64,000 nucleotides of DNA. It comes from Planctomycetes bacterium UBA1146 (GTDB lineage: Bacteria; Planctomycetota; UBA8108). A program made the translations under genes and the position numbers. Of the stretch, positions 19,531-48,260 are shown piece by piece (within the stretch, counting starts at the first letter, position 1; every line of letters begins with the position of its first letter). The notes under the pieces are model-generated. The model made no database searches, had not been told where the DNA came from, and worked only from the letters and a program-made list of their open reading frames with translations. The DNA lies in NCBI GenBank assembly GCA_963579555.1, contig CAUZHA010000005.1, positions 9,938 to 73,937 on the forward strand. The letters are read 5' to 3'.

Positions 19531-21861
19531 ATGGCTTTGATAACGACGAATACCAGGGTTCTGGCAAAGCGTTTTGTGGGGAATGGCAGGCGGGGGCCTG
19601 CCGCTCCAGGTCGAGTTGGCGTCGCGGGGGCATGGTTGCCTAACGCTCTGGCGATAGCCCTGTTTGTTTTATTCAGCGGCGGCTTCGTGTCTGCCGGCGG
19701 CGGTGATGAGGAGTGCCGCGATCCCGCTGCCCCCGCCGGGCCCTCTCCATCTGATGGGCAGACCGGCAGGCGAACTCGCACGAGCCTCCAGTGGGGAGAG
19801 AGGCAGACGATTCAGCGCAAGGTCGTCTATGGGGATGATGACCGCCAGGATGTTTACCAGGTAAACAACGAGGCCCTCCTGAGAATGTCCCAGGGGACCT
19901 GCGCCCTTGTCTCGCCCTTCAACATCGATCGACAGGCCGATGGCCGCTACCGGCTCTCGGGGACAGCCCTGGGAGCGGCTCGTGATCTCTGCGCATCGGA
20001 GCCGTTCCGGGAGCAACCCACGGCGGCTTTCTGTTCCGGTTTCCTGGTCAGCCAGGATGTGGTAGCCACGGCCGGCCATTGTGTTCCGGCAGGCGGCTGC
20101 GATGGGACAGCCTTCGTTTTTGATTACAAGATGATCGATTCAACCACCGCGAAAATGGTCATAGAGGAGGAGAACGTCTATTTTTGCGAAGAGGTCGTTG
20201 GCCATCGTCTTTCCGGAGGTGTGGATTACGCCCTGGTCAGGCTTGACAGGCCGGTTACCGGCAGGCAGCCAGTGGAGATCAGGAGATCGGGCAGGGTTCC
20301 AGACCGGACACCGCTGGTTATGGTGGGGCATCCTTCCGGCCTGCCGCAGAAGATCGCCGGCGGGGCCCGGGTGAGAGACAACTCAGCTTCAAGTCATTTC
20401 GTAGCCAATACGGACTCCTACGGGGGCAATTCAGGCTCGCCGATCTTCAATGAACTCACCAGCGAGGTGGAGGGCATCCTGGTCCGGGGAGTCGCTGATT
20501 ATGTTCCCGAGGGCAATTGCTACGTATCCAATCATTGCTCCGACGAAGGTTGCGATGGCGAGGATGCGACCCGCACGACTCATTTTTCCGACCTGCTTCC
20601 TCCTGCGGGCGGACCGGTTGTTTACGCGGTCTATCTGGGGCGCTGCGGCAACCTGGAGTCTCTTGGCGAGACCGGCGAGCGCAGCTGGATCGTATCAGGG
20701 CTGGAGATCAATACCGAGTATTGCTGGCAGGTGAGGGCGAGCAACGATTGCGGTTCGGTCGTCGGGGCTGTCTGGAGCTTTACCACCGGCGAGGAGGTCG
20801 GGCCGGATCCGAATCTGCCGAATGACAGCGTCGATAATGCCTGGCCCATCGAGGGACTCGGCGGCTCCTTCGATGATGCCAGCGACTCTGCGAGCCCGAT
20901 CCTGTGGTGGGCCTGGGAGGCTCCTCGCTCGGGGCGCGTGGTCTTTGATACCCGCGGCAGTGGTTTTGACACGATCCTTTCCGCCTACGATTCCGCCCGC
21001 GGGATCCTGGCGGAAAACGATGATGCCTATCACCTGCAGAGCGAGGTCAGCTTCGAGGTCGATGGCGGGGAGACCTACTACATTTCCGTTTCAGGCTACT
21101 CCGGGGCTACAGGCGACATCTCTTTGAACTGGTCTCTCGGAGGAGAGGCGCCCGCTCCCGGCCCGGCTCCAGGCGGAGGTCCGGTCAACGATGACCTCGC
21201 CGACCATCTCGAGTTCGACTCGAGTGAGGGGCGGGCGACCGGCAACAGCGATACCGCAGGTGACGAGGGCTGGGAAGGCGATCTCTTCGGAGGCGCCTCG
21301 GTCTGGTGGGAATGGACGCCTCCGACCGGAGGGCTTCTGCGGGTTGACACCATCGGCAGTGATTACGATACGACCCTGACAGTTCTCCGCGGCGATTCGC
21401 CCGGTGAGCTCTCGGTTCTTGGAATGAACGATGATTCCAGCGGGCTCCAGAGCCGGGTCGAGTTCACCGCAGAGGCTGGTCAAAGCTACCTGATCAGGGT
21501 CGCCGGGTATAGCGGCGCCACCGGCGACATCGTCCTCAACTGGCAGGTGCTGGAACCTTCTGAGCCTGTCGATGGTCCTGTCTGGTTCATGCGCTCAGAT
21601 GCGAACCAGGATGGCCTGTCGGATATGAGCGACGCGGTCGAGATCCTCGCCGAGCTCTTTCTCGGCGAGGGCCCCGGAAGGGGCTGCCCCCAGAGTCTCG
21701 ATGTCGATGACAATGGGGCTGTCGAGCTTACCGACAGCGTCTATCTGCTCACGTTTCTCTTCAATGGGGGAGATGCTCCGCCAGCGCCCTTCGGCTTCTG
21801 CGGAGTGGATTTCAGTGATGGTGGCCTCGTATGCGAGACCTACGCGCCCTGCGGCGAGTAG
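19531..21861 (+). CDS. Secreted trypsin-like serine protease with FN3-like domain, two PPC-like beta domains and dockerin
   Basis: TAGHC, DYAL, GNSGSP triad; two DT.GS.[FY]DT.L...NDD repeats; C-terminal dockerin; exact start uncertain. Confidence 0.85.
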   Translation: MALITTNTRVLAKRFVGNGRRGPAAPGRVGVAGAWLPNALAIALFVLFSGGFVSAGGGDEECRDPAAPAGPSPSDGQTGRRTRTSLQWGERQTIQRKVVYGDDDRQDVYQVNNEALLRMSQGTCALVSPFNIDRQADGRYRLSGTALGAARDLCASEPFREQPTAAFCSGFLVSQDVVATAGHCVPAGGCDGTAFVFDYKMIDSTTAKMVIEEENVYFCEEVVGHRLSGGVDYALVRLDRPVTGRQPVEIRRSGRVPDRTPLVMVGHPSGLPQKIAGGARVRDNSASSHFVANTDSYGGNSGSPIFNELTSEVEGILVRGVADYVPEGNCYVSNHCSDEGCDGEDATRTTHFSDLLPPAGGPVVYAVYLGRCGNLESLGETGERSWIVSGLEINTEYCWQVRASNDCGSVVGAVWSFTTGEEVGPDPNLPNDSVDNAWPIEGLGGSFDDASDSASPILWWAWEAPRSGRVVFDTRGSGFDTILSAYDSARGILAENDDAYHLQSEVSFEVDGGETYYISVSGYSGATGDISLNWSLGGEAPAPGPAPGGGPVNDDLADHLEFDSSEGRATGNSDTAGDEGWEGDLFGGASVWWEWTPPTGGLLRVDTIGSDYDTTLTVLRGDSPGELSVLGMNDDSSGLQSRVEFTAEAGQSYLIRVAGYSGATGDIVLNWQVLEPSEPVDGPVWFMRSDANQDGLSDMSDAVEILAELFLGEGPGRGCPQSLDVDDNGAVELTDSVYLLTFLFNGGDAPPAPFGFCGVDFSDGGLVCETYAPCGE

Positions 21862-21880
21862 CGTTCCAGGCTGAATAGAA

Positions 21881-21920
21881 AAAGGCCGGTCGGCAGAGTC
21901 CTGCCGGCCGGCCTTTGTTT
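21881..21920. terminator. Bidirectional intrinsic terminator between convergent genes
   Basis: aaaggccggtcggcag-agtc-ctgccggccggccttt 16-bp stem flanked by A and T tracts. Confidence 0.85.
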
Positions 21921-21940
21921 TATCCGGGAATGCCTTCGGC

Positions 21941-23248
21941 TTATTTCAGGGCCTTGATGCGGACATTCCTGTACTGAACGGGCGAGCCGTGTCCGGCGAA
22001 GCCGAAGTGGCCCTCCTTGCGATCCTTCCCCCCGACTTTTCTTCCCATGAACTTGGTTACCTGGCCGAGGTCTGTATCGAGGATGGTGGTGCCGTTGAGC
22101 TCGACGCGTATCTTTGAGCCCTGGACCGTCACCTGCTGGTAGTTCCATTCGCCCAAGGGGCGCTGGTAGCCGCGGTGGGCGGCGGCCATGCCGTAGGCCG
22201 AGCCGTGGTACTGACGCGGGTCGAGCTTGGCGTAGCCCTTGGCGCTGTTGTCGAGAACCTGGAGCTCGCACATCCCGACATAGGCCGTGTCACCCTTTCC
22301 AGGGTAGCGGATGGCGAGGCCATTGTTACCTCCCGGGGGCATCTTGAACTCAAACCGTACGGCGAAATCCGAGTAGATCTTCTTGGTGTAGATCGTTCCT
22401 CCGCCGCGCTTTGGGCAGGTGAGAACGCCGTCCTTGATCTGGTAGGCTGCGGTCGGGCCGGCCCAGCCGGAGAGATCTTTGCCATTGAAGATCGGGGTGA
22501 ATTCGTCTTCGCCTGCTTTCGAGAGGAGCTTGTTGGCCTCCTCCGCTCCGATTTCCCTGATGGTGATATTTCGCCAGCGGATCTCGCCGCCGTGGGTCTG
22601 GAGCTGGATCGGTCCGTTTCTGCGCAGCGGCAGCTTCCTGTTCCAGTAGTTTTCCATCGGAGCCATATCGATGACCTGCTTGCCGTTGAGCCAGACCGAG
22701 GTCCTGTCGCCAACCTGCAGGATCCGGAAGCTGTTCCACTGCCCGAAGGGCTTGTCTGCGAGTACGGATGGATCCTTGCCGGCGGCGCCCTTGGAATTGT
22801 TCCACAGGCCTCCGGAGCCCTTGTCGGCCCCGATACCCCACTTGCCGCCGGCCTTGGTGTAGTCCCAGATCTGCACCTGGGGACTCGCCCTGAGATAGAT
22901 GCCGCTGTCGGCCTTGGCGACGGTCTTGTAGTCGATCAGGAACTCGATGTCGCCGTAGCTCTTGTCGGTGGTCAGGTAGACTCCATGGCCATCGTTGACG
23001 AGCTCTCCGTTATCAACGGTCCAGTGCTTCCTGGCATCTTCAAGGTCGGCCGCGCGCTTCTTCGCCTGGTCCTCCTCGCTCATCTTACTCAACTTGTTGG
23101 GGTTGAAATGTCCCATTCCGTGCCAGCCGGTTAGATCCTTGCCATTGAAGATGGAGGTGAAGCCTTTCGGGGGATCCGCCGCCTCGGCGAGGGGAAACAG
23201 GGCGGACAAGCTGCAGAGAAGAAACAGGGGCACGGTGACTTTTCGCAT
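21941..23248 (-). CDS. Tandem DUF1080 (3-keto-disaccharide hydrolase family) protein
   Basis: Two IFNGKDL.GW repeats; DSGIYLR, GPIQLQTHG, GFAGHG..YRN; signal peptide from ATG 23248. Confidence 0.9.
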   Translation of the reverse strand: MRKVTVPLFLLCSLSALFPLAEAADPPKGFTSIFNGKDLTGWHGMGHFNPNKLSKMSEEDQAKKRAADLEDARKHWTVDNGELVNDGHGVYLTTDKSYGDIEFLIDYKTVAKADSGIYLRASPQVQIWDYTKAGGKWGIGADKGSGGLWNNSKGAAGKDPSVLADKPFGQWNSFRILQVGDRTSVWLNGKQVIDMAPMENYWNRKLPLRRNGPIQLQTHGGEIRWRNITIREIGAEEANKLLSKAGEDEFTPIFNGKDLSGWAGPTAAYQIKDGVLTCPKRGGGTIYTKKIYSDFAVRFEFKMPPGGNNGLAIRYPGKGDTAYVGMCELQVLDNSAKGYAKLDPRQYHGSAYGMAAAHRGYQRPLGEWNYQQVTVQGSKIRVELNGTTILDTDLGQVTKFMGRKVGGKDRKEGHFGFAGHGSPVQYRNVRIKALK

Positions 23249-37807: not shown

Positions 37808-39865
37808 ATGAAATCCAGAAGTCTATGTGGATTGGTGGCAGCTTTGTGTATTGCAATCGCGGGGCAAAGCTCTGCGCAGGATGTTGCGCTCTCGTTTGGT
37901 GGCCCCTGCGGCGACGAGATTGTCGGAGCTGCCGGCTCAGCTCAGGAGATGACGCTTGATTGCGTTCTTACCACTTCGAATAATCCCGGAGATGCTGGAG
38001 CCCAGGGTTGGTCGATCAGTGTCGCCGCAGAAGGCGGTACGATCACCGGCATTACTACAGATGGCACTGTGGGCGCGGATGTGGCACAGGGTGGTCTTCG
38101 AAGCGTCGGTTTCGAAAAAACCGAAACAACGGAGCGTTCGGGAGTAACCCCCGGCGGTGCTAACGACTGTGATGGTCTCAGGGGTGCGGTGAGCGCCGTT
38201 GTTCTGTCCTTTGTCAATCCCGTGACTCTTGATGCTGAGGGTTCCGCAGTTATCGCAAAGGTCGATGTGGCGGCCGAGATCCCCAGCGTGCCTGGCGATT
38301 GCAGCGAGGTGACTGTTTTCTTCGGGGATGGTTGCCGCGGTGCTGGCCAGCCTGTAAGGAACGCTATCACCATGAACGCCTCGACCTTTATTCCCGAGCT
38401 TGGACGATGCGTCAAGACGCTCTGCGCTCCTCGACCGGAGGATTGCAGCCGGGCTGGTGACGAGGATGGCAACGGCCTCGCTGACTGTGATGACCCGGCC
38501 TGTTCCGACCTTCCGGCATGTCTCAATGTCGATGTAGCCCTTGGCTTCGGTGGCATTGAAGATGTTTCAGGTGACACCGGCGGAAGCTACAGCCAGACCG
38601 TCGACTGTACACTGACATCGTCGAATAATGATTTTGGTGTCGGAGCCCAGGGCTGGTCGATCAGTGTCGCGGCCGACGGTACCAGTATCTCTTCGATCAC
38701 GACGGATGGGACCGTGGGCGCGGATGTTGCGCAGGGTGGTCTTCGAAGCGTTGGGTTTGAAAAGAGCCAGACGACCCGTGAGGCCGGCAATGGCAGTGAT
38801 TGTGAAGGATTCAATGGAGCGGTGAGCGCCGTTGTTCTGTCCTTTGTCAATCCCGTGACTCTTGATGCTGAGGGTTCCAGTGTTATTGCCAAGATCGACA
38901 TAGAAGGCGAGCTGACTGCAGAGACGGGAAGCTGTGTTGGCGGACGACTTTTCTACGCCAATGGATGCCAGGGTGCCGGTCAGCCGGTTACCAACGCGAT
39001 CACCATTAATGCCCAGACAAGAGTCCCAGAGCTTGGCGCGGGTTCATTTCAAGCCTGCTCCGAAGAATCAGGTGATTCTCAGGCGGACTTCGATCTCGCC
39101 TTTAGCGGTGAGAACAGTGAAACGATCACAGGCGTTTTTGGCCTGACCTTCAACCAGACTGTTGATTGTACGCTGACAATTTCTGAGAACAGGACAGAGG
39201 TCGGAGCCCAGGGCTGGTCGATCAGTCTGGCGCCCGATGCGGGTGTCAGTGTCGTAGCTATCAGCGTTGATGGAACCGCCGCGGCTGACGAAGATGACGG
39301 TGGCCGTCGTCGAGGCGGGTTCGAGAAGAGTGAGCTCACTGTAGGGGCGGGAAACATGGGCGCGATCAGCGCGATTGTTCTCTCCTTTACCGAGCTTGTG
39401 ACCCTGCCTGCTTCCGGGACCGAGGTTATTGCCAAGATTGATATCCAGGCTCCTTATCCCGCTGTTGACGTAACTGAAACGAAAGTCATTCGTTATGTCG
39501 ATGGGCTTCGTGGCTCCGGCCAGCCGGTTGATAACGTAATTACTCATGATAACTTCGGTGTTCTCCCCAGGAAGGCGCCCTACGAGGTGACTCTTCTCGG
39601 TATTGATGAGAATGCGATCACTTACGACTGTAACACCGATGGGCGGGTGAACATTGCTGACGCGCAGTGTCTGCTGAATTGGTTGTTCCTCGGTGGTGCG
39701 GCGCCCGGCTGTCAGGACGCCATGGACTTTAACGGGGATGTCCGGCTGAATATCGCCGATGGTATTTCGGGACTCAACTTCCTCTTCCTTGGAGGACCGC
39801 CGCCTGCGGCTGGTGTCGGATGTCAGCCCTACCCCGATTGCGATCTTCAGGATGCCTGCTCCTGA
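37808..39865 (+). CDS. Scaffoldin-like protein: 3 cohesin-like repeats + C-terminal dockerin
   Basis: Strong RBS (GAAGGAG), signal peptide; three GAQGWSIS..GFEK..SAxVLSF..TL...IAK.D..G.GQPV.N repeats; DEDGNGLADCDDP linker; dockerin. Confidence 0.8.
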   Translation: MKSRSLCGLVAALCIAIAGQSSAQDVALSFGGPCGDEIVGAAGSAQEMTLDCVLTTSNNPGDAGAQGWSISVAAEGGTITGITTDGTVGADVAQGGLRSVGFEKTETTERSGVTPGGANDCDGLRGAVSAVVLSFVNPVTLDAEGSAVIAKVDVAAEIPSVPGDCSEVTVFFGDGCRGAGQPVRNAITMNASTFIPELGRCVKTLCAPRPEDCSRAGDEDGNGLADCDDPACSDLPACLNVDVALGFGGIEDVSGDTGGSYSQTVDCTLTSSNNDFGVGAQGWSISVAADGTSISSITTDGTVGADVAQGGLRSVGFEKSQTTREAGNGSDCEGFNGAVSAVVLSFVNPVTLDAEGSSVIAKIDIEGELTAETGSCVGGRLFYANGCQGAGQPVTNAITINAQTRVPELGAGSFQACSEESGDSQADFDLAFSGENSETITGVFGLTFNQTVDCTLTISENRTEVGAQGWSISLAPDAGVSVVAISVDGTAAADEDDGGRRRGGFEKSELTVGAGNMGAISAIVLSFTELVTLPASGTEVIAKIDIQAPYPAVDVTETKVIRYVDGLRGSGQPVDNVITHDNFGVLPRKAPYEVTLLGIDENAITYDCNTDGRVNIADAQCLLNWLFLGGAAPGCQDAMDFNGDVRLNIADGISGLNFLFLGGPPPAAGVGCQPYPDCDLQDACS
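38186..38878 (+). repeat. Identical 60-bp intragenic repeat between cohesin repeats 1 and 2
   Basis: 38186-38245 = 38819-38878 (gcggtgagcgcc...gagggttcc). Confidence 0.9.
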
Positions 39866-39926: not shown

Positions 39927-40265
39927 GTTGGTGTTTTTTGTGAGGCAGATTTGTAGCAGCGGTAAATGTACAGGGTGATTGAAAAGTCCTAATCCTTTAA
40001 ACTGCCTGTAATTAAAAGGTGTGGCGGGGGGGTTTCGCCTTTACTATTGATGTTAGGTCAATTTCAGAGGGCCAGGGGAGTTTCTCATTCAGCCACAGTG
40101 CTGTTGATATAAACCGTTTTTATTGTTAACTTTGGACCTTCGGACTGGGTTCGGATCTACAAGCAAGGTGGGGTTCGTTTTTACCTGGGTTTTAATGGTA
40201 GCTGAAAAATTAGAAGGCGAAATTTCCAGTCGAATCCTGCTCGTTTGCCAGCAGGGAGGGTAGTC

Positions 40266-41135
40266 ATGAAATATAGTTATTTTTACGCTTTGGTTGCGGT
40301 TTTAGGGGTTGCTCTTGGGGGGACTTGCTACAGCCAGGAGCTTAGTCCGGCTCAGTTTGAGCTCGGATTTTCAGGCAACAACAACGGAACGCTCAGGGGG
40401 CTTGCCGGGCAGACATTTACGCAGACAATTAACTGTACGCTAGCTACGTCCGCGAACGAGACCCCGCTTGGCGCTCAGGGTTGGTCCATCAGCATGGCGC
40501 CCGATGAGGGAATTAATATTGTCGGCATTACAGTTACAGGCACAGTTTCCGCCGAACAGGATGAGGGTGGGTTGCGGGCTGGTGAGGGATTCGAGAAGAG
40601 CGAGCTGACCGAAGGTGAAGGGAACGTTGGCGCGGTGAGCGCCGTGGTTCTCGGTTTTTCCGAGCTGGTGATGCTGCCTCTCACGGGCATCTCGGTGATC
40701 GCGCGACTTGATATCGAGTGTCCCTACCCTGCGGTGGATGTGAGTGAGACCAAGGTTATACGGTATATCGACGGGCTCAGCGGCTCCGGGCGTCCTGTAG
40801 AAAACGTCATTGCCCAGGCGGATTTCGGAATCCAGCCGGATTTGACCTCTTACGAGGTTACTCTTTTGGGAATCGACGAAAACGCCGTTACCTATGATTG
40901 CAATTCCGATGGCCGGGTCAACATCGCGGATGCTCAGTGCATGCTGAATTGGCTGTTCCTGGGTGGACCTGAGCCCGGTTGCCGTGACGCTATGGATTTT
41001 AACGCGGATAGCCGTCTCAATATTGCAGACGGCATCTCCGGGCTGAACTATCTCTTCCTTGGAGGACCTCCTCCTCCGGCAGGAGTCGGCTGTAAGTCCT
41101 ATCCCGATTGCGAAAGCGAGGCGGCCTGCCTCTAA
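40266..41135 (+). CDS. Single cohesin + dockerin, paralog of the C-terminal part of 37808
   Basis: GGGAGG RBS, signal peptide; near-identical PYPAVDV.ETKVIRY and YEVTLLGIDENA.TYDCN.DGRVNIADAQC. Confidence 0.85.
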   Translation: MKYSYFYALVAVLGVALGGTCYSQELSPAQFELGFSGNNNGTLRGLAGQTFTQTINCTLATSANETPLGAQGWSISMAPDEGINIVGITVTGTVSAEQDEGGLRAGEGFEKSELTEGEGNVGAVSAVVLGFSELVMLPLTGISVIARLDIECPYPAVDVSETKVIRYIDGLSGSGRPVENVIAQADFGIQPDLTSYEVTLLGIDENAVTYDCNSDGRVNIADAQCMLNWLFLGGPEPGCRDAMDFNADSRLNIADGISGLNYLFLGGPPPPAGVGCKSYPDCESEAACL

Positions 41136-41268
41136 TCGTCTTTCGTTTCCCGGCCCGTTCGATAGGATATAAATCAGAATAAAACCGATACGGGTTCACT
41201 CTTGAGGTGTTTACCGTTCTGTAGTCGGCGCGGTCGGGCTTGTCAGCTAAATATTTGGAGTGCAGATT

Positions 41269-42321
41269 ATGCGACGTTTATTACGGATGTTGAGCTTGGG
41301 AGTTTTCCTGGGATTGCCGATGGCCTCTTTTGCGCAGGAACGGCCTGGAGTTGACGCGGCTCCCAGCCGCCAGGCCGGCATAGCCTGGTTTGGAACGCTC
41401 AAGAGCGTGCTTACCGAGGCTCAACGCACCGGCAAGCCGATTCTCCTGGTTTCCGCCGCGCCTCACTGTCACTACATTTCCGGCATCTGGTGACCCGGCA
41501 AGCAGCGCATGGACAGGAGTTTCCTGTCTGACAAAGGAATCATTCGCGCTTCGCGTAACTTCGTCTGCGGCAGGCTCGCAACCTACGAGGACAAGGAAGA
41601 GGGTGAATATCTGAGCGGGCTCTTCCGCGGAAGAAGCGGCCAACTGGAGAATACGGTTTTTTGCATCATGAGTCCTGACGGCAAGGACAGGCTTGTGAGG
41701 TCCGGGCGGTCTCCCGGCTGGGCTTTCCCAGGTTCGGAAGACCAGGCGGTCAGAGACATGGAAACGAAAATGGATGAGATCGCTTCACGCTACACCGTGA
41801 AGAAGGAGTCCAGGTCCTCTCTTCCGGGGTTGCCCGTTCTGCCTAACTTCCGCCTGGCATTGAACGTTGCGGCTTGTGACAACCTGCCGCTGGTGGCGGC
41901 CGTAGCGCGGTCAAAGGATTCCAGGGAGAAGCTCCAGAAACAGGTCAATGAACTGGCCTGGAGCAAAGATTTCATCGGTCGTTTTATTTACGTTTTTGCC
42001 GGGGAGGCCTCGGAACTCAAGAAGGTCAAAGGTATCGAGAACAAAGAGGGTTTGTTTGTTATCGCTCCGGACACCTTTGGCCAGGAAGGGAAGGTGCTGA
42101 CCCAGGTAAGGCTCGGTGGCGGCCGCAAAGAACTTGCGGAGAGCCTCGCCCGGGCGGTGGCGCTCCACCAACCTGAGCGAAAAGAGATGCGCAGCCACAA
42201 TGCCCTCGGCAAGATCCTCGACGTCAACTGGAAGACCCAGGTCCCGGTTACCGATGCAGGAGCGCCCCGTCGGCGGGAAAGTCGAAGCGGGCGGAGAGGC
42301 TCGTCCGGCGGCAGGCCCTGA
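41269..42321 (+). CDS. Putative selenoprotein: secreted thioredoxin-fold protein (C-x7-U; WUPG)
   Basis: ORFs 41260-41493 and 41509-42321 are in one frame, separated only by TGA 41491 and 5 sense codons; IAW..TL...L.EA.RTGKPILLV thioredoxin-like N-terminus; UGA falls at the WCxxC position. Confidence 0.78.
41511..41529 (+). promoter_or_regulatory. Candidate bacterial SECIS hairpin
   Basis: gGACAGGA-gtt-TCCTGTCt; loop starts with G, 25 nt after the UGA. Confidence 0.6.
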
Positions 42322-42345: not shown

Positions 42346-43962
42346 TCAGCAGCTCTCATAGGCCGCGCAGCCGAGCGAATCCCCGCCAGCCGCCGGGTCG
42401 TTGTCGCATTCGTTGCCTGGCGGTCCGGGAGCCGGTGGCCGGGCTGCCCCGTTGAACAGGTACCTCAGCAGGAAAACTCCATCCGTGATATCGATGCCGC
42501 CGTCATCGTTCGCATCGGCTGAATCAAGGCAGGCGGGGACCGCGCCGCCAAGGAACAGGTAGCTGAAAATCCGCGATGGATCCGATATGTCTACCGATCC
42601 GTCGGCGTTGGCATCTCCACGGTGAAAGGGCCGATCCGGAACGCATTCGCCGCCGAGCTCGTCGCCGTTGCCGTCGATCGCCGGACTGCCGGGTAAAACT
42701 CTCACGAGGTCCCTGATCGTCCGTGAGCTCTCGCCGCAATCACCCGAGATCGTCAGGGTGACGATGTAGGTGCCGGGCTCGGTATAGAGATGCGTCGGGT
42801 TTTGAGCGTCGCTTCTGGATCCATCTCCAAAATCCCATCTCCAGTTGCCGATGGCATCTCCAGCTGAGCGATCAAGGAAGCTGACAAGGAGAGGCGCGCA
42901 TCGAGGCCCCGTTCTCTCTATCGTAAAGTCAGCCGTTGGCGGAGGGCAGACGGTGTCAGCGAAGGTCTGCAGCAGTCCCGCGCTATAGCTGATCGCGATC
43001 GGGTACAGCTCCTCGGAATAGAGTCGCAGCAGTGTCCGGCTGTTTGCCGCGCCTCTCCAGCGCGCCGGGGTCAGCCGGTTGTTGTCGCCGCCGGTATTTT
43101 CGACATAAAAATTTCCGGTGATCCGCCTGGCACCCCCGGGTCCGCCTTCGTCTTCTGAGAAGTCGTCGGTGCTGGGCCACCACTCGTCGCAGGCGCTGGG
43201 CGAGCCAATGCAGGGGGGGAAGACGCCGGCCTCATCAAACTCTCCGATGTTGTCGATGACCCAATAATCGTCGCCGAGGAAGCCTCCATCGTGGAAGGTC
43301 AGGGTAGGGAACATGCGCTTGAACTGGGTGTCGGGCTGGGGGTTGGCCTCCTGGATGATCCCAGGCCAGGTCGTCGCGCTGTAGACGAGCAGGGCCGCGG
43401 TGTGGACGAAGGATTCCGGCGAACCATCGGCGGGGAAGACCGGCGCGAGATCGAGCAGGGGCAGGAAGTTTCCGCCTCCCCATCCCTCAAAATCATCGCC
43501 ATCGATGTGGGTGTCTGAGTGCGTATGGGCGGGGGAGGTCATGTCCTGGATGAGATGGATGCAGCGGCCTAACTTATGGAAGGCGCCGTTGGGGCCACCG
43601 AGATTCCCCGCATCGTAGGCGGAGATGGCCTGAGCCCAGAGGATCGGCATCGCGTCCCTGGCGTTGGAGGCGATGATGTTGGCCCAGTCGACCACCCCTG
43701 GGCAGGGCAGGTCAAAGCCGCGGCCGTTGTGGGGGTTGTAGGCGTGGTAGCAGTACTGGGGGAAGGTGTCTTCATCTATCGAGCCCTGGCCGATGTCCGC
43801 TCGGAAGCGGTTCAGCAGGCCGACATCGAGGATGTCGACCGCGTTGAGGCTGATGCCGCGATGGACCTCTACCTCGTGGGCGCTGGCTGGCCCAACCAGG
43901 CAGCAAAAGAGCAGGACCGCGGTACAGACTGAACGAAAGACTGGAAGGTCACTTTTTGGCAT
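42346..43962 (-). CDS. Zn-dependent phospholipase C / S1-P1 nuclease-like domain + PKD + dockerin
   Basis: Mature N-terminus HEVEVH; HAYNP; LG..IHLIQDMTSPAH..D.FE; WDFGDG..NPTH.Y..PGTY PKD; RGDAN dockerin. Confidence 0.75.
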   Translation of the reverse strand: MPKSDLPVFRSVCTAVLLFCCLVGPASAHEVEVHRGISLNAVDILDVGLLNRFRADIGQGSIDEDTFPQYCYHAYNPHNGRGFDLPCPGVVDWANIIASNARDAMPILWAQAISAYDAGNLGGPNGAFHKLGRCIHLIQDMTSPAHTHSDTHIDGDDFEGWGGGNFLPLLDLAPVFPADGSPESFVHTAALLVYSATTWPGIIQEANPQPDTQFKRMFPTLTFHDGGFLGDDYWVIDNIGEFDEAGVFPPCIGSPSACDEWWPSTDDFSEDEGGPGGARRITGNFYVENTGGDNNRLTPARWRGAANSRTLLRLYSEELYPIAISYSAGLLQTFADTVCPPPTADFTIERTGPRCAPLLVSFLDRSAGDAIGNWRWDFGDGSRSDAQNPTHLYTEPGTYIVTLTISGDCGESSRTIRDLVRVLPGSPAIDGNGDELGGECVPDRPFHRGDANADGSVDISDPSRIFSYLFLGGAVPACLDSADANDDGGIDITDGVFLLRYLFNGAARPPAPGPPGNECDNDPAAGGDSLGCAAYESC

Positions 43963-44911
43963 GAGAGCCCTCGCCTTTCATCAGCAACTGGAGGCCAGCG
44001 AATCTTCCTAACGGATCATTCAGCGCGGCTCTCTGTTTCAGCCAGGCCGCGGCGTCCTTCCCGCCCATCCTTGCGATCGCCTGGATGGACCAGGCCTGAA
44101 CCCGCGGTTGGCGGAGCGTCGAAGCGTTCGAGAGAAGCTCGAGTTTTTCGGCAGAGGCTGCCAGCTCGAGGCGGAGGAGAGAGATCCCCGCCTCCGCCTT
44201 CCAGGTGCCGGCGGGATTGTCGATGATGGCCTGGGCCGCTGCCTGGGCTTTTTGTCGTTTCCCGCTGAAGAAACCCAGTCCGTAGGCTGCTTCGCGGCGG
44301 GCCTGCATGTCGACGCCTTGGAGAGCCTCCAGGACCGTTCCGAGAGCCTCCATGCTTCCCAGCCTTGCCAGGGCGATCGCGGTGTTGACCCTGACGCTCT
44401 GGTTCGCATCGCGGAGATAGGGACGAATTGCATCAGCCGTGGCGGCGTGACCGCTCGACCCGGCGGCAGCGATGAGAGACTTCAGGGCACCGGAATCTCT
44501 CTCGACTGGCAGCCTGGCGAGGACCTTCGCGACCTGGGTGTCGTCTTCAAGGAGCATCAGGACACTGCCGGCCCTGCGGCGAATCGCCACTTCTTTGGAG
44601 GCGAGGCTCTCGCCGGCGATCCTGGCAGCCTCCGGGTCCTTCATCTCCGCCAGCAGGCGCAGGGCCATGAGCCGTGTTTCCCGGTCACCATCGCGAGCGG
44701 CCTTTCGCACCCCAGGGAGATTGGCTTCCCTGTTCTGCAGCAACCTCTCGAGCAACTCTCGCTTGGGGACAGACCTGCCTCTGCTGGCCAGCAGCTTGAT
44801 GAGAGCTTCCGCCTGGTCACCGGGTGTTTCTCTCCCGGAGGTGTCCTGGCCCAGGGCCAGTCCCGGTCCGGTAAGCAGGCAGAAAATTAATGGTTTCAGA
44901 GCCAGCCTCAT
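43949..44911 (-). CDS. Secreted HEAT-repeat protein
   Basis: Signal peptide from ATG 44911; VRVNTAIALARLG, ARREAAYGLG repeats; overlaps the next gene by 14 bp. Confidence 0.75.
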   Translation of the reverse strand: MRLALKPLIFCLLTGPGLALGQDTSGRETPGDQAEALIKLLASRGRSVPKRELLERLLQNREANLPGVRKAARDGDRETRLMALRLLAEMKDPEAARIAGESLASKEVAIRRRAGSVLMLLEDDTQVAKVLARLPVERDSGALKSLIAAAGSSGHAATADAIRPYLRDANQSVRVNTAIALARLGSMEALGTVLEALQGVDMQARREAAYGLGFFSGKRQKAQAAAQAIIDNPAGTWKAEAGISLLRLELAASAEKLELLSNASTLRQPRVQAWSIQAIARMGGKDAAAWLKQRAALNDPLGRFAGLQLLMKGEGSHAKK

Positions 44912-44945
44912 TGGTTGGCCCCGTTTTCTTTCACCGCGCAATGGT

Positions 44946-45680
44946 TCACTCGCCAAGCAGCTCCTTGAGCTTGCCCTCGATGGAGGCCGCCCAGATCTCG
45001 TAGCCCCGAGTCGACAGATGCAGGAAGTCCGGCATGATCTTTTTGTCCAGGCTTCCATCTGTCTCGAGGAAGTGATGGCCGATAGCCAGGTAGTGGACAT
45101 GTACTCCGTCGTCGAGCTTGCGGGCGGTCTGGTTGACCTGCGCAATGTCTCCGCGCTGGGTGTTGAAGCGCTGCCCCCTGGGGAAGATGTCGAGCAGGAG
45201 GATCTTCATTTCGGGCAGCTTCTTCCTGAGCTTTTTGATGATAGCGGTGATCCCGTCGACGATCTCCGCAGGCGAGTTGCGGTTTCTTCCGGAGTTGTTG
45301 GTCCCGATCATGATGACTGCGACCTTCGGTGCGATCCCCTTGATGTTTCCATTGTCGAGTCGCCAGAGAACGTGTTCCGTGCGGTCGCCGCCGATGCCGA
45401 GGTTGACAGTGTTTCTCTTGCCGTAGTATTTCTTCCAGACTCCGCGGCCGCTTCCTTCCCAGCCCTGGGTGATGGAGTCGCCGATGAAGATAAGGTCCAC
45501 CGAGCCTTTGGCGACCCTGGAGTTGAAGCTATTGTGCCGAGTCATCCAGCCTCCGCCTCGGGGGGCGGGAGTGATCGCGGAGTGGGGCTTGGTTTCCTGC
45601 GCGTCGAGTGTTGCGCCTGGGTCGATAAGCAGGGTCGAAGAGAATAGAAACAGGCAGGAAATACTCGCAAGGCGTTTCAT
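44946..45680 (-). CDS. SGNH/GDSL esterase (PAF-acetylhydrolase-like)
   Basis: FIGDSIT, GIGGDRT, GTNN, DFLHL; signal peptide. Confidence 0.92.
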   Translation of the reverse strand: MKRLASISCLFLFSSTLLIDPGATLDAQETKPHSAITPAPRGGGWMTRHNSFNSRVAKGSVDLIFIGDSITQGWEGSGRGVWKKYYGKRNTVNLGIGGDRTEHVLWRLDNGNIKGIAPKVAVIMIGTNNSGRNRNSPAEIVDGITAIIKKLRKKLPEMKILLLDIFPRGQRFNTQRGDIAQVNQTARKLDDGVHVHYLAIGHHFLETDGSLDKKIMPDFLHLSTRGYEIWAASIEGKLKELLGE

Positions 45681-45893: not shown

Positions 45894-48260
45894 ATGAGAG
45901 CGAGTATTCACTGCGGGTTTTCGATTCGACCACTGTTGTTGGGGGCTCTCCTCGCCGTCTCCCTGCTTAGCCTCCCTGGAGAAGGGGCGGCCCTGCTCGC
46001 CCGTGAATATTCACGGGGTGTGCTGGCCGAGGGCACCAGGTGGGAGAATTCCTATTACGTGATCGATTCCGGCGTGGAGGGTCCTGTGGTGCTCATCACC
46101 GGCGGGATGCATGGCAATGAACCAGCCGGATCGAGGGCGGCGGAACAGCTCGTTCACTGGAATGTCGTGCGGGGGCGGGTTGTGATTGTTCCGCGAACGA
46201 ACACTCCCGGACTGAAGGCTAACACCCGCTTGATGCCAGGCGTGGACAAGCCAGCCAACAACCTGAACAGGAATTTTCCCGGCACCGGCGCTCCGGACGC
46301 TGCGCGCTCTGTCCCAGGGAAGGCTCTCTGGGAACTGGCGCGAAAGATCAGGCCTCAGTGGGTATTTGATCTGCACGAAGGTTTTGATTTTCATATCGCC
46401 AACAAGGGCTCGGTCGGCTCCAGCGTGATCTATCTCGATTCTCCAGAGACGCGGAAGGTCGCCACGCTGCTGATCGATGAGGTGAATCCTACGATCACTG
46501 ATCCGAAACGCAAATTCGTTCACATCAGCGGAGGGCCGGTGAATACGGGCCTCGCGAGGGCCTGCATTGACCGCTTCGGGAGCAAGGGTTTCATTCTCGA
46601 GACCACCTTCCATCGCCAGCCCCTGTCACTCCGGGTCCGCCAGCACAGGCTCATGGTCTACAGGGCCTTGAGCCATCTCGGCATGGTAGAGGGAGGGCCC
46701 CATGTTCTTGCCGGGAGAAAAGCCGCCGCGGCGGCCCGGGGGGTTCCGGCCGATGAGCTCGTCCTGGTGGCTCTCTATGATGGCGGCGGTACCGGCGGTG
46801 ACGGGGTCCGGAACGTTACCCGGCAGCTTCATCCTCTCGATAAGGTGGTCCTGTGCAGCGTTGGCCCCGCCGACATAGCCTCAGGCGTCCTGCCGCAGTT
46901 TGACGTGGCGATCTTTCCCGGCGGCAGCGGCAGCGGAATCGCCCGGGCGATCGGCAAGGAGGGACGCGAGCAGGTGCGGGACTTCGTGCGGGAGGGAGGC
47001 GGCTATATCGGGATCTGCGCCGGCGGCTACCTGGCGGCCTCCAATTATGACTGGAGCCTGGGGCTTGTCGATGCGAAGACCATCACCGGCAAACACTGGC
47101 TGCGTGGCAAGGGCAAGGTGAAGATCGAGTTGACCGATGATGGACGCAGGGTCTTCGGGGATTTTAAGGGGCCTCTCGATGTCATCTTCGCCAATGGGCC
47201 GATTGTTTCTCCCGCAGGCCTCGACCGGCTGCCGGATTTCAAGTCGCTCGCCATCTACCGCACCGAGCACGCCGAGAACGGCAGCCCGGCCGGGCTGCAG
47301 GTAGGGACTCCGGCGATCCTGGCCGGAAAGTGCGAGGGGGGACGGGTCATCAGTATCAGCCCCCATCCTGAAGCGACCAGGGGGTTGGAGTTCTTTATTC
47401 CCCGGGCGGTAGAGTGGGTCGCGGATCGTTCACCGGAGAGCCTGGTCGCCACCCCTTCTCCAGGGAAGCAGCCTCCTGCTCAAAGTGTTGAACGCCTTGG
47501 GGTGATGCCTGATCTTACGGCGACCGATGCCGAGGCGGCCCTGCCTCTCGGGGGCAAACATTACGGAGGGCCGGTGGCCGCTTCAAACGCCCTGGCCTGG
47601 CTCGCCCGGGAAAGGAAGTACGAGCGCCTGCTGCCTGAGGGCAAGCTCGACTCCCGGCTCCAGGGCCGCCTGGCCAGACGACTCGGCGGCCGAGGCTACA
47701 TGGACACCGAGACTCAGCGGCAGACTGGAACCCCGGCTGCCCTGAAGGGCATCGGCAGGTTGCTGGAGGAGAAAGGGTATTCAGCTGATTTCGCCTACCA
47801 GGGGTGGCGTAAGGTTGAAAAGAAATTCAGGGCGGGCTGGCCCTGGCCGGATCTTGACTGGGTGAAGGGTTCTTTGCAGGGTGATTCCATGGTGTTGCTC
47901 ATTGTCGGCTGGTATCGACACGATGCCGACAAGGATGTCTACCAGCGCTCCGGCGGCCACTGGGTGACCCTGGCCGGGTATGGAGTCGATGAAAAGGGCC
48001 GGGCCGATGAGGGGATCCTGTTGATTCATGACCCGTCGCCACGGGCTGGGATGGAGCCGGCTGTGGAGTACGTCCGGATTGAGCCGATAGCGAGCGGCCG
48101 CCTGGTTGGCAACTCGGGCATGCCCAAGGGGGCCAATAGCGCTGTGGGCTTCTATCGCCTGGGCGGTGGAATGCACATCAACGCCGAGCGCGGTGATGTC
48201 TGCATCCTGGACGGAGCGGTTGTTGCCATCCTGGAAAAACCAGGGCCTGGGAGGAAGTAG
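45894..48260 (+). CDS. AstE/AspA (M14) deacylase + BPL_N (GATase-like) + degenerate C39-like domain
   Basis: GGMHGNE, NLNRNFP, DLHE; PGG, GICAG, HPE; GHWVTLAGY..IHDP. Confidence 0.8.
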   Translation: MRASIHCGFSIRPLLLGALLAVSLLSLPGEGAALLAREYSRGVLAEGTRWENSYYVIDSGVEGPVVLITGGMHGNEPAGSRAAEQLVHWNVVRGRVVIVPRTNTPGLKANTRLMPGVDKPANNLNRNFPGTGAPDAARSVPGKALWELARKIRPQWVFDLHEGFDFHIANKGSVGSSVIYLDSPETRKVATLLIDEVNPTITDPKRKFVHISGGPVNTGLARACIDRFGSKGFILETTFHRQPLSLRVRQHRLMVYRALSHLGMVEGGPHVLAGRKAAAAARGVPADELVLVALYDGGGTGGDGVRNVTRQLHPLDKVVLCSVGPADIASGVLPQFDVAIFPGGSGSGIARAIGKEGREQVRDFVREGGGYIGICAGGYLAASNYDWSLGLVDAKTITGKHWLRGKGKVKIELTDDGRRVFGDFKGPLDVIFANGPIVSPAGLDRLPDFKSLAIYRTEHAENGSPAGLQVGTPAILAGKCEGGRVISISPHPEATRGLEFFIPRAVEWVADRSPESLVATPSPGKQPPAQSVERLGVMPDLTATDAEAALPLGGKHYGGPVAASNALAWLARERKYERLLPEGKLDSRLQGRLARRLGGRGYMDTETQRQTGTPAALKGIGRLLEEKGYSADFAYQGWRKVEKKFRAGWPWPDLDWVKGSLQGDSMVLLIVGWYRHDADKDVYQRSGGHWVTLAGYGVDEKGRADEGILLIHDPSPRAGMEPAVEYVRIEPIASGRLVGNSGMPKGANSAVGFYRLGGGMHINAERGDVCILDGAVVAILEKPGPGRK

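Follow-up and report, generated by a model that had tools for sequence, protein, structure and literature searches.

A predicted exported selenoprotein family of Planctomycetota and Verrucomicrobiota with a thioredoxin fold and a C-x7-U-x-x-K active site

This study concerns a stretch of 64,000 nucleotides from Planctomycetes bacterium UBA1146 (assembly GCA_963579555.1, contig CAUZHA010000005.1, positions 9,938 to 73,937 of the forward strand; hereafter the window) and one gene within it which, judging from its sequence and those of its relatives, almost certainly encodes a genuine selenoprotein of an exported thioredoxin-fold family. The family is widespread in Planctomycetota and Verrucomicrobiota, and its protein is probably a redox enzyme. 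We consider it highly likely that the reading holds as a whole, namely that there is one gene for an exported, predicted selenoprotein of about 350 residues that works by the redox mechanism proposed below. Between the ATG at 41269 and the TGA at 42319-42321, translation of the frame meets a single internal stop, the TGA at 41491-41493, and the table-11 open reading frames (ORFs) 41260..41493 and 41509..42321 are the two halves of one 350-residue protein, whose translation could also begin at an in-frame GTG at 41260. The residues flanking the TGA, with U for selenocysteine (Sec), are A-P-H-C-H-Y-I-S-G-I-W-U-P-G-K-Q-R-M-D-R-S-F-L, which places Cys67 eight positions before U75. The first residues look like an export signal, as predicted from the N-terminal sequence. 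An earlier note on this DNA had joined the two ORFs in frame across the TGA at 41491 into a 350-residue selenoprotein of a thioredoxin-fold family; translation confirmed the frame, and conservation of the TGA, the existence of Cys forms, a covarying hairpin, and a structure model have since borne out the family.

The in-frame TGA is conserved without exception among the copies that we compared. Relatives were sought at the DNA level by scanning one genome per species, which gave 196 relatives, and the best 80 loci were kept; they contribute 81 copies (one locus, L025, has two), making 82 distinct copies with that of the window. By record title, 56 of the best 80 loci come from Planctomycetota of various ranks and 20 from Verrucomicrobiota, with one locus each labelled Omnitrophota, Alcaligenaceae, Vulcanimicrobiota, and 'uncultured bacterium'. 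All 82 copies have TGA at the W-U-P-G-K position, none has a further internal stop, and both halves share one frame in every copy. The terminal stops of the relatives are TAA, TAG, or TGA, and the window gene itself ends in TGA. Given that TGA serves as a true terminal stop in the window gene and in relatives, a genome-wide reassignment of this codon is not the explanation. In an even sample of 201 genomes from the window's phylum, the gene was present in 25, and every match had the in-frame TGA; some of these matches list more stops, which we took to be the gene end and its flanks.

Alternation between Cys and UGA at codon 75, proposed as a check in the earlier note, was observed. Cys stands at the TGA position in eight database proteins (P0022, P0030, P0122-P0124, P0133, P0137, and P0266), and TGC or TGT occupies the Sec position in 9 of the 11 metagenome loci retrieved by searching with the Cys form P0122, the other two being partial and without the motif. 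The Met at the supposed downstream start is absent from the Sec forms L062, L071, L079, L085, L096, and L050. Three studies provide seawater RNA libraries (X1, X3, and X4) with contigs that span 41491-41493 with 0 differences; in each run, these contigs cover the gene incompletely, and they do not prove transcription, its level, or its strand. Given that three other data sets have contigs with this very codon, the TGA at 41491 is not an assembly error.

Several members of the family deserve separate mention. The locus L025 holds tandem copies of the selenoprotein gene (453-1493 and 1578-2615), each with its own TGA and hairpin. In L044 (3788-4213), a TAG stop lies 34 codons past the Sec codon, for 142 codons in total, and L075 also ends early; these two are possibly decayed copies or assembly faults. 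A paralogue of the family is found in the same genome as the window gene, at 21024-21992 on the minus strand of contig C4 (L110:325-1293). It has one in-frame TGA, its motif is C-x8-U, with the Cys one residue further upstream, and it reads U-K-G-K instead of U-P-G-K. A Gemmata-type subgroup (P0014, P0022, P0030, P0127-P0129, and L075:3458-4117) is extended at the N terminus by a long stretch rich in Pro, Gly, and Lys that contains an L-T-x-x-Q-like helix. Basic Arg/Gly-rich tails with runs of R, G, and P are found at the C terminus of most members in an alignment of 83 family rows, which we refer to as A3.

A hairpin resembling a selenocysteine insertion sequence (SECIS) follows the codon. 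In the window it has an 8-bp stem and a GUU loop; measured from the TGA, the stem begins at 17 nt and the loop G stands at 26 nt. The earlier note had described a hairpin 25 nt downstream, and the hairpin is real, with that distance fitting the loop but not the stem, which starts at 17 nt. In a gap-free alignment of 74 distinct stretches, each reaching from 9 nt ahead of the TGA to 57 nt past it, the named helix pairs in 94.2% of cells, compared to 29-59% when the 3' partner columns were slid by 1-3. The covariation that the earlier note had wished to see examined is present, with compensatory change on both sides in 7 of the 8 pairs (15 cells), and 0 of 500 shuffles reached the observed value on any of five measures. 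RNAalifold returned the same helix minus one pair. Codon choice points in the same direction: AGG encodes the Arg at U+8 in 62 of 65 copies, compared to 6.6% of the other Arg codons of these genes, and AGT encodes the Ser at U+9 in 78 of 78, compared to 12.6% elsewhere in them, a skew that tells an RNA constraint apart from a protein constraint. In the 74-stretch alignment, conservation of the loop letters G and U reaches 90% or more, and it is G and U in the loop that SelB reads in the E. coli and Moorella elements. In the six Cys forms nearest P0122 (P0122-P0124, P0133, P0137, and P0266), M-D-R-S-F-L is lost in favor of V-K-I-D-N-G-W or similar, and there is no such hairpin; the Cys form P0022 keeps M-D-R. 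Over the 63 nt past the codon, the folding energy of the Sec forms has a median of -17.6 kcal/mol, and that of the Cys forms ranges from -13.3 to -21.1. Given that folding energy does not separate Sec from Cys forms, the evidence for the hairpin consists of its conserved position and its covariation. The distance from the UGA to the hairpin is as expected for a bacterial SECIS. Like the fdhF-type SECIS of E. coli, the hairpin lies inside the ORF soon after the UGA and presents G and U in its apical loop. Unlike that element, it has a 17-nt spacer and a plain stem, of 8 bp if the loop is read as the 3-nt GUU and of 7 bp if it is read as 5 nt, and the window hairpin shows no evident conserved bulged U and no Rfam match. 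A hairpin that dictates both a conserved peptide and its codons illustrates cleanly how an RNA signal constrains a protein sequence.

The genome that contains the window has the machinery for Sec insertion, with selA, selB, selD, and tRNA-Sec (69 bits) all above curated cut-offs. Among the 25 sampled genomes that bear the gene, selA is found in 24, and the 25th (G148, in 340 contigs) has selB and tRNA-Sec. Given that selA occurs in 148 of the 201 genomes of the phylum, its presence is a weak discriminator.

Structure prediction, another check named in the earlier note, gave a confident model that sets U75 at the place of the thioredoxin nucleophile. AlphaFold2, with A3 as input, returned two thioredoxin folds with a mean predicted local distance difference test (pLDDT) of 89.8 and a predicted template modeling score (pTM) of 0.85. 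In the model, U75 lies directly before helix 76-83 and after strand 58-63. Cys67, at the position where a possible resolving Cys had been suggested, is invariant in 83 of 83 rows of A3 and is modeled in a small beta-hairpin within a longer-than-usual loop between that strand and that helix. The upstream ORF alone would indeed stop in the middle of the fold, with its end falling between strand 1 and helix 1. Also invariant in the 83 rows are W40, A51, P57, G72, W74, P76, K78, D82, C100, R102, Y106, E107, E111, N128, R147, P189, G237, and G271, and position 75 is Sec or Cys in every row except that of P0014. The start of helix 1 carries neither CxxC nor CxxS; the motif there is U-P-G-K, with K78 invariant. 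The second domain is without a conserved Cys, and Cys203 is not kept in the family rows of A3 that were listed.

Comparison with known folds places domain 1 near the Thioredoxin_7, DsbD-gamma, DsbH, and AGR types (PF13899, PF03190; 3f9u, 1vrs_D, 2ju5, and 3ph9). At the sequence level, PF13899 (Thioredoxin_7) gave an E of 0.01 or less for 81 of 83 members, with 1.2e-7 as the best value. At the structural level, residues 33-178 matched 3f9u_B with a VIA Z score of 11.9 (root-mean-square deviation [rmsd] of 2.5 over 124 aligned residues), DsbH with 11.4, DsbD-gamma (1vrs_D) with 10.6, and AGR3 (3ph9_B) with 10.6, and domain 2 matched thioredoxins h with a VIA Z score of 9.2 over residues 187-300. 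The family shares with the Thioredoxin_7-like group the fold of domain 1, export, and a reactive residue at the start of helix 1. It differs in having U-P-G-K rather than CxxC, in a loop between strand 1 and helix 1 that is about 8 residues longer and holds the invariant Cys67, and in what comes after domain 1, namely another thioredoxin fold and a C-terminal segment that is conserved. When the whole model was submitted to Foldseek, a-b chains of the protein disulfide isomerase (PDI) family ranked first (E of 2.4e-5), although the pair of domains did not superpose (TM score of 0.24, rmsd of 17.8 Angstrom). The likeness to PDI proteins (4el1, 2b5e, and ERp44 5hqp; Foldseek E of 2.4e-5 to 1e-3) lies in an active first domain followed by a thioredoxin fold without a motif. 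The differences are a domain placement that does not superpose (TM score of 0.24, rmsd of 15-21 Angstrom), the lack of CGHC, the bacterial origin, and an identity of 10-12%.

The public record of this family is almost entirely truncated at the Sec codon. A word-indexed protein search gave 378 matches at E <= 0.001, and 117 of the 120 proteins listed cover 55-77% of the query, the other three (P0014, P0022, and P0030) covering 88-92%. In an alignment of 13 database proteins (A1), 10 begin at the Met six codons past the TGA. Searching with residues 30-110 added the Cys forms P0122-P0124 and a set of N-terminal fragments (P0125-P0129) that end at ...G-I-W. A profile search of 1.84 billion cluster representatives returned 1097 at E <= 0.001, 776 at 1e-10, and 330 at 1e-30. 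Among the 150 best of these representatives, 147 lack everything before the TGA, and the three that are full length (P0133, P0137, and P0266) are all Cys forms. The suspicion voiced in the earlier note that the family is mis-split in annotation was thus well founded, with 147 of the 150 best representatives starting after the TGA. The gene occurs in about 1 in 8 sampled genomes of the phylum, and nearly all public records are shortened 'hypothetical' or 'thioredoxin family' proteins without the active site; recognizing the family would correct many annotations and add to the bacterial selenoproteome.

The recoding signals and the place of Sec in the fold come from the data; beyond them, we propose the following mechanism. 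SelB with Sec-tRNA(Sec) would recognize the hairpin through its GU loop while the ribosome sits on the UGA, and Sec would be put in at position 75. The product would consist of a Thioredoxin_7-like domain responsible for catalysis and, after it, a thioredoxin fold that has no motif, a layout like that of PDI a-b. The substrate would be periplasmic or secreted, and the selenolate of U75 would attack an oxidized sulfur on it (or a peroxide). The helix has no Cys after U75, and the most likely partner would be the invariant Cys67, resolving the adduct to an internal Se-S bond, after which an outside redox partner would reset the protein. For the four nearest relatives that have a long N terminus, a fused c-type cytochrome domain may be this partner. 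K78 and the polar invariant residues would tune the site, and domain 2, together with the conserved C-terminal segment, would hold the substrate or the partner.

A number of observations weigh against this reading and need to be set beside the evidence above. The homologue P0014, a full-length protein from a JGI metagenome, has Leu at the Sec position (G-I-W-L-P-G-K), which could be a one-base change of TGA, an inactive copy, or an error. The window protein itself scored 18.1 bits against PF13899 (E of 0.003), below the 27-bit cut-off, and a sequence-profile search of the PDB found nothing below an E of 0.18. The alignment to 3fk8 (E of 0.3) sets C67, not U75, at the canonical first-Cys position, and the closeness of C67 to U75 is inferred from the secondary structure of the model only. 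As for the RNA, the hairpin region of the window has a folding z-score of 0.44, with 128 of 200 shuffles folding at least as well; given that its folding energy is unremarkable, the argument for the hairpin is a comparative one, drawn from relatives. Over the whole window, no Rfam family was found at the gathering level, and near the site, at E <= 10, the only match was a chance one to ATPC with an E of 5.8. The hairpin lies inside codons for a conserved peptide, and part of its conservation may be at the protein level. The shuffle control ignores the relatedness of the sequences, and the paired columns 32 and 46 are unpaired in 23 of 73 sequences, mostly of the Verrucomicrobiota type. Finally, the gene neighborhoods hold no consistent functional clue.

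We weighed four other explanations. That the TGA is a true stop or an error, with the two ORFs as separate products or a pseudogene, has next to no probability left and is already close to refuted. Gene callers split the gene everywhere, and a Met six codons past the TGA is common; against this, the end of the upstream ORF would cut a confidently modeled fold after strand 1 and before helix 1, the frame and the TGA are kept in 82 of 82 copies, and the Met is missing from several Sec forms. Cys forms exist, the hairpin covaries, the TGA is identical in three other data sets, and TGA also ends the window gene and many relatives. A rather different possibility accepts the selenoprotein and has C67, U75, and C100, together with Lys78, bind or carry a metal, metalloid, or chalcogen (for instance Cu, Hg, As, persulfide, or perselenide) in place of disulfide exchange. 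We regard it as unlikely, though it has several points in its favor: C67, C100, and K78 are invariant and U75 is nearly so in the 83 rows; the motif is U-x-x-K, not UxxC, a short motif as in selenophosphate synthetase (Table 1 of PMC13188914); L075 has an N-terminal match to Metal_resist/LTXXQ (E of 4.9e-5, under the cut-off); and the invariant Asn128, with Thr129 next to it, stands, by an inferred mapping, at the usual place of the cis-Pro before strand 3. However, none of the matched families was a metal-binding one, C100 is at the start of strand 2 and, from the topology of the model, probably far from U75, His66 is replaced by Gln in many members, and the Metal_resist match is weak and confined to one lineage.

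A one-Sec peroxidase, in which peroxide oxidizes U75 to a selenenic acid that C67 resolves before re-reduction, is quite unlikely in our estimation; it would resemble atypical peroxiredoxins or glutathione peroxidases, with a different thioredoxin-fold scaffold. Cys-containing glutathione peroxidases and atypical 2-Cys peroxiredoxins work by similar logic, and the combination of one Sec where helix 1 begins and a resolving Cys some distance away, the invariant polar residues W74, N128, R147, Y106, and E107 around the site in sequence, and a family that is overwhelmingly Sec rather than Cys would all fit. On the other hand, no Pfam match to GSHPx, AhpC-TSA, or Redoxin was found in the 83 members at E <= 0.01, and the nearest folds are of the DsbD-gamma, DsbH, and AGR types, not peroxidases. 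The earlier note had also speculated that the protein might act on the disulfides of the products of adjoining Cys-rich scaffold genes, here the dockerin proteins, an idea to which we now assign a very small probability. In the window the gene does come after two dockerin-bearing genes and before an opposite-strand PKD-dockerin gene, and neighbors of the same kind are present in L017-L021. This neighborhood is shared only by the window and these five close relatives (78-84% identical) among the 81 loci compared, the other 75 of which differ, and the same genome holds the second copy elsewhere, on contig C4. Given that dockerin/PKD neighbors are limited to L017-L021, a scaffold role is unsupported beyond that lineage. 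The exported redox selenoprotein remains our preferred reading.

Among bacterial selenoproteins, the most frequent kind has a thioredoxin fold and carries its SECIS within the ORF. The kind to which our family belongs is known; what is new is its active-site layout, its near-exclusive use of Sec, and its architecture. It resembles the catalogued thioredoxin-fold selenoproteins in having Sec in place of a redox Cys, the SECIS inside the ORF, and a gene that is split in public annotation, and it differs from them in that Cys forms are rare (3 of the 150 best representatives). With C written for U, a search of NCBIfam release 20.0, whose selenoprotein models include NF041199, NF045500, NF041374, and NF041383 as well as those that Table 1 of PMC13188914 cites, gave 0 families at E <= 1. 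Table 1 of PMC13188914 (2026) lists 119 selenoprotein families or subfamilies; in the part of that source available, the sole U-x-x-K entry is selenophosphate synthetase, and none of the 119 combines a thioredoxin fold with C-x7-U or U-x-x-K, or with a two-domain build. The comparison with catalogued families that the earlier note had recommended thus ended without a match in NCBIfam or in the 119-family list. In the accessible portion of the GOS survey (PMC2398784), the thioredoxin-like families are all UxxC, the motif strings U-P-G-K and M-D-R-S-F-L are absent from two of its supplementary files, and a row of its Table 2 given as 'Unknown, 15 sequences, 0 Cys homologues' could not be identified from that portion. 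A full-text literature search found nothing on a C-x7-U-x-x-K family, although an earlier description in another list is possible. The odd active-site layout and the strong preference for Sec over Cys make the family useful for asking what selenium does beyond sulfur. The features of the gene and of its surroundings are collected in Table 1.

Table 1. Coordinates, in the window, of the selenoprotein gene, its parts, and neighboring genes
Feature	Position	Strand	Remarks
Entire selenoprotein gene	41269..42321	+	350 codons and stop TGA 42319-42321; opens once TGA 41491 is read through
Selenocysteine codon U75 (TGA)	41491..41493	+	TGA in 82/82 distinct copies; Cys in some homologues
Cys67 codon (TGT), candidate resolving Cys of C-x7-U	41467..41469	+	Invariant in 83/83 rows of A3
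SECIS-like hairpin	41511..41529	+	Arms 41511-41518 / 41522-41529, GUU loop 41519-41521; within D-R-S-F-L-S codons
Probable signal peptide, residues 1-22	41269..41334	+	Basic start, hydrophobic run, S-F-A before Q23; low model confidence for residues 1-30
Domain 1, Thioredoxin_7-like fold, residues ~38-177	41380..41799	+	Bears C67, U75, K78, and C100; Pfam and structure matches
Domain 2, thioredoxin fold without redox motif, residues ~185-300	41821..42168	+	Model; structure matches
Conserved C-terminal segment, residues 307-329	42187..42255	+	H310, G314, W321, P-V-T-D 326-329; near-invariant A3 columns; pLDDT 92-98 to about residue 330
Basic Arg/Gly-rich tail, residues 330-350	42256..42318	+	Sequence; low model confidence
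Secreted proteins with dockerin-like Cys-rich C termini	37808-39865; 40245-41135; 42346-43962	+; +; -	
HEAT-repeat protein	43949-45145	-	Downstream of selenoprotein gene
GDSL-type lipase/acylhydrolase	44946-45680	-	Overlaps HEAT-repeat ORF by ~200 nt as listed
788-residue protein with AstE/AspA-like and BPL_N-like parts	45894-48260	+	

One fusion bears on the outside partner of the proposed mechanism. In L017 (12-629), L018 (3551-4168), L020 (3551-4168), and L021 (3602-4168), a PSCyt1 cytochrome c domain (E of about 1e-15) stands N-terminal, between the signal peptide and the thioredoxin domain. The proteins that host it are the closest relatives of the window protein (83-84% identical), and fragments P0125 and P0126 have it as well; it is missing from L019 and from the window copy. 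We considered that C-x7-U-x-x-K could be a new kind of selenium-dependent thioredoxin-fold active center that passes electrons between periplasmic thiols and a c-type cytochrome. This is a speculative and improbable idea, hinted at by the cytochrome c fusion in the four closest relatives with a long N terminus. If true, it would make the protein a thiol oxidase/reductase wired to the respiratory chain without flavin or quinone, and dependence on selenium would explain the rarity of Cys forms.

In Verrucomicrobiota, 17 of the 20 loci have a co-directional sulfatase 0-80 nt past the stop (for example L059:1099-2406 and L034:5024-6325), the Pfam identity of this cluster coming from one representative; the sulfatases by Planctomycetota copies are on the opposite strand or distant. 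Neither the cytochrome fusion nor the sulfatase clue is general across the family. The Cys forms had no neighbor in common among five loci. Around the Sec forms, recurrent neighbor clusters 1-5 are mostly overlapping spurious ORFs; the genuine recurrent neighbors, which occur for the most part only in related Verrucomicrobiota loci, are sulfatase, EF-hand, DUF3500, PQQ-propeller, and GFO/IDH/MocA genes. Among the dockerin-type neighbors in the window, the gene at 40245-41135 has a weak Dockerin_1 match, and that at 42346-43962 has a PKD domain, its counterpart in L021 giving a weak match to zinc phospholipase C.

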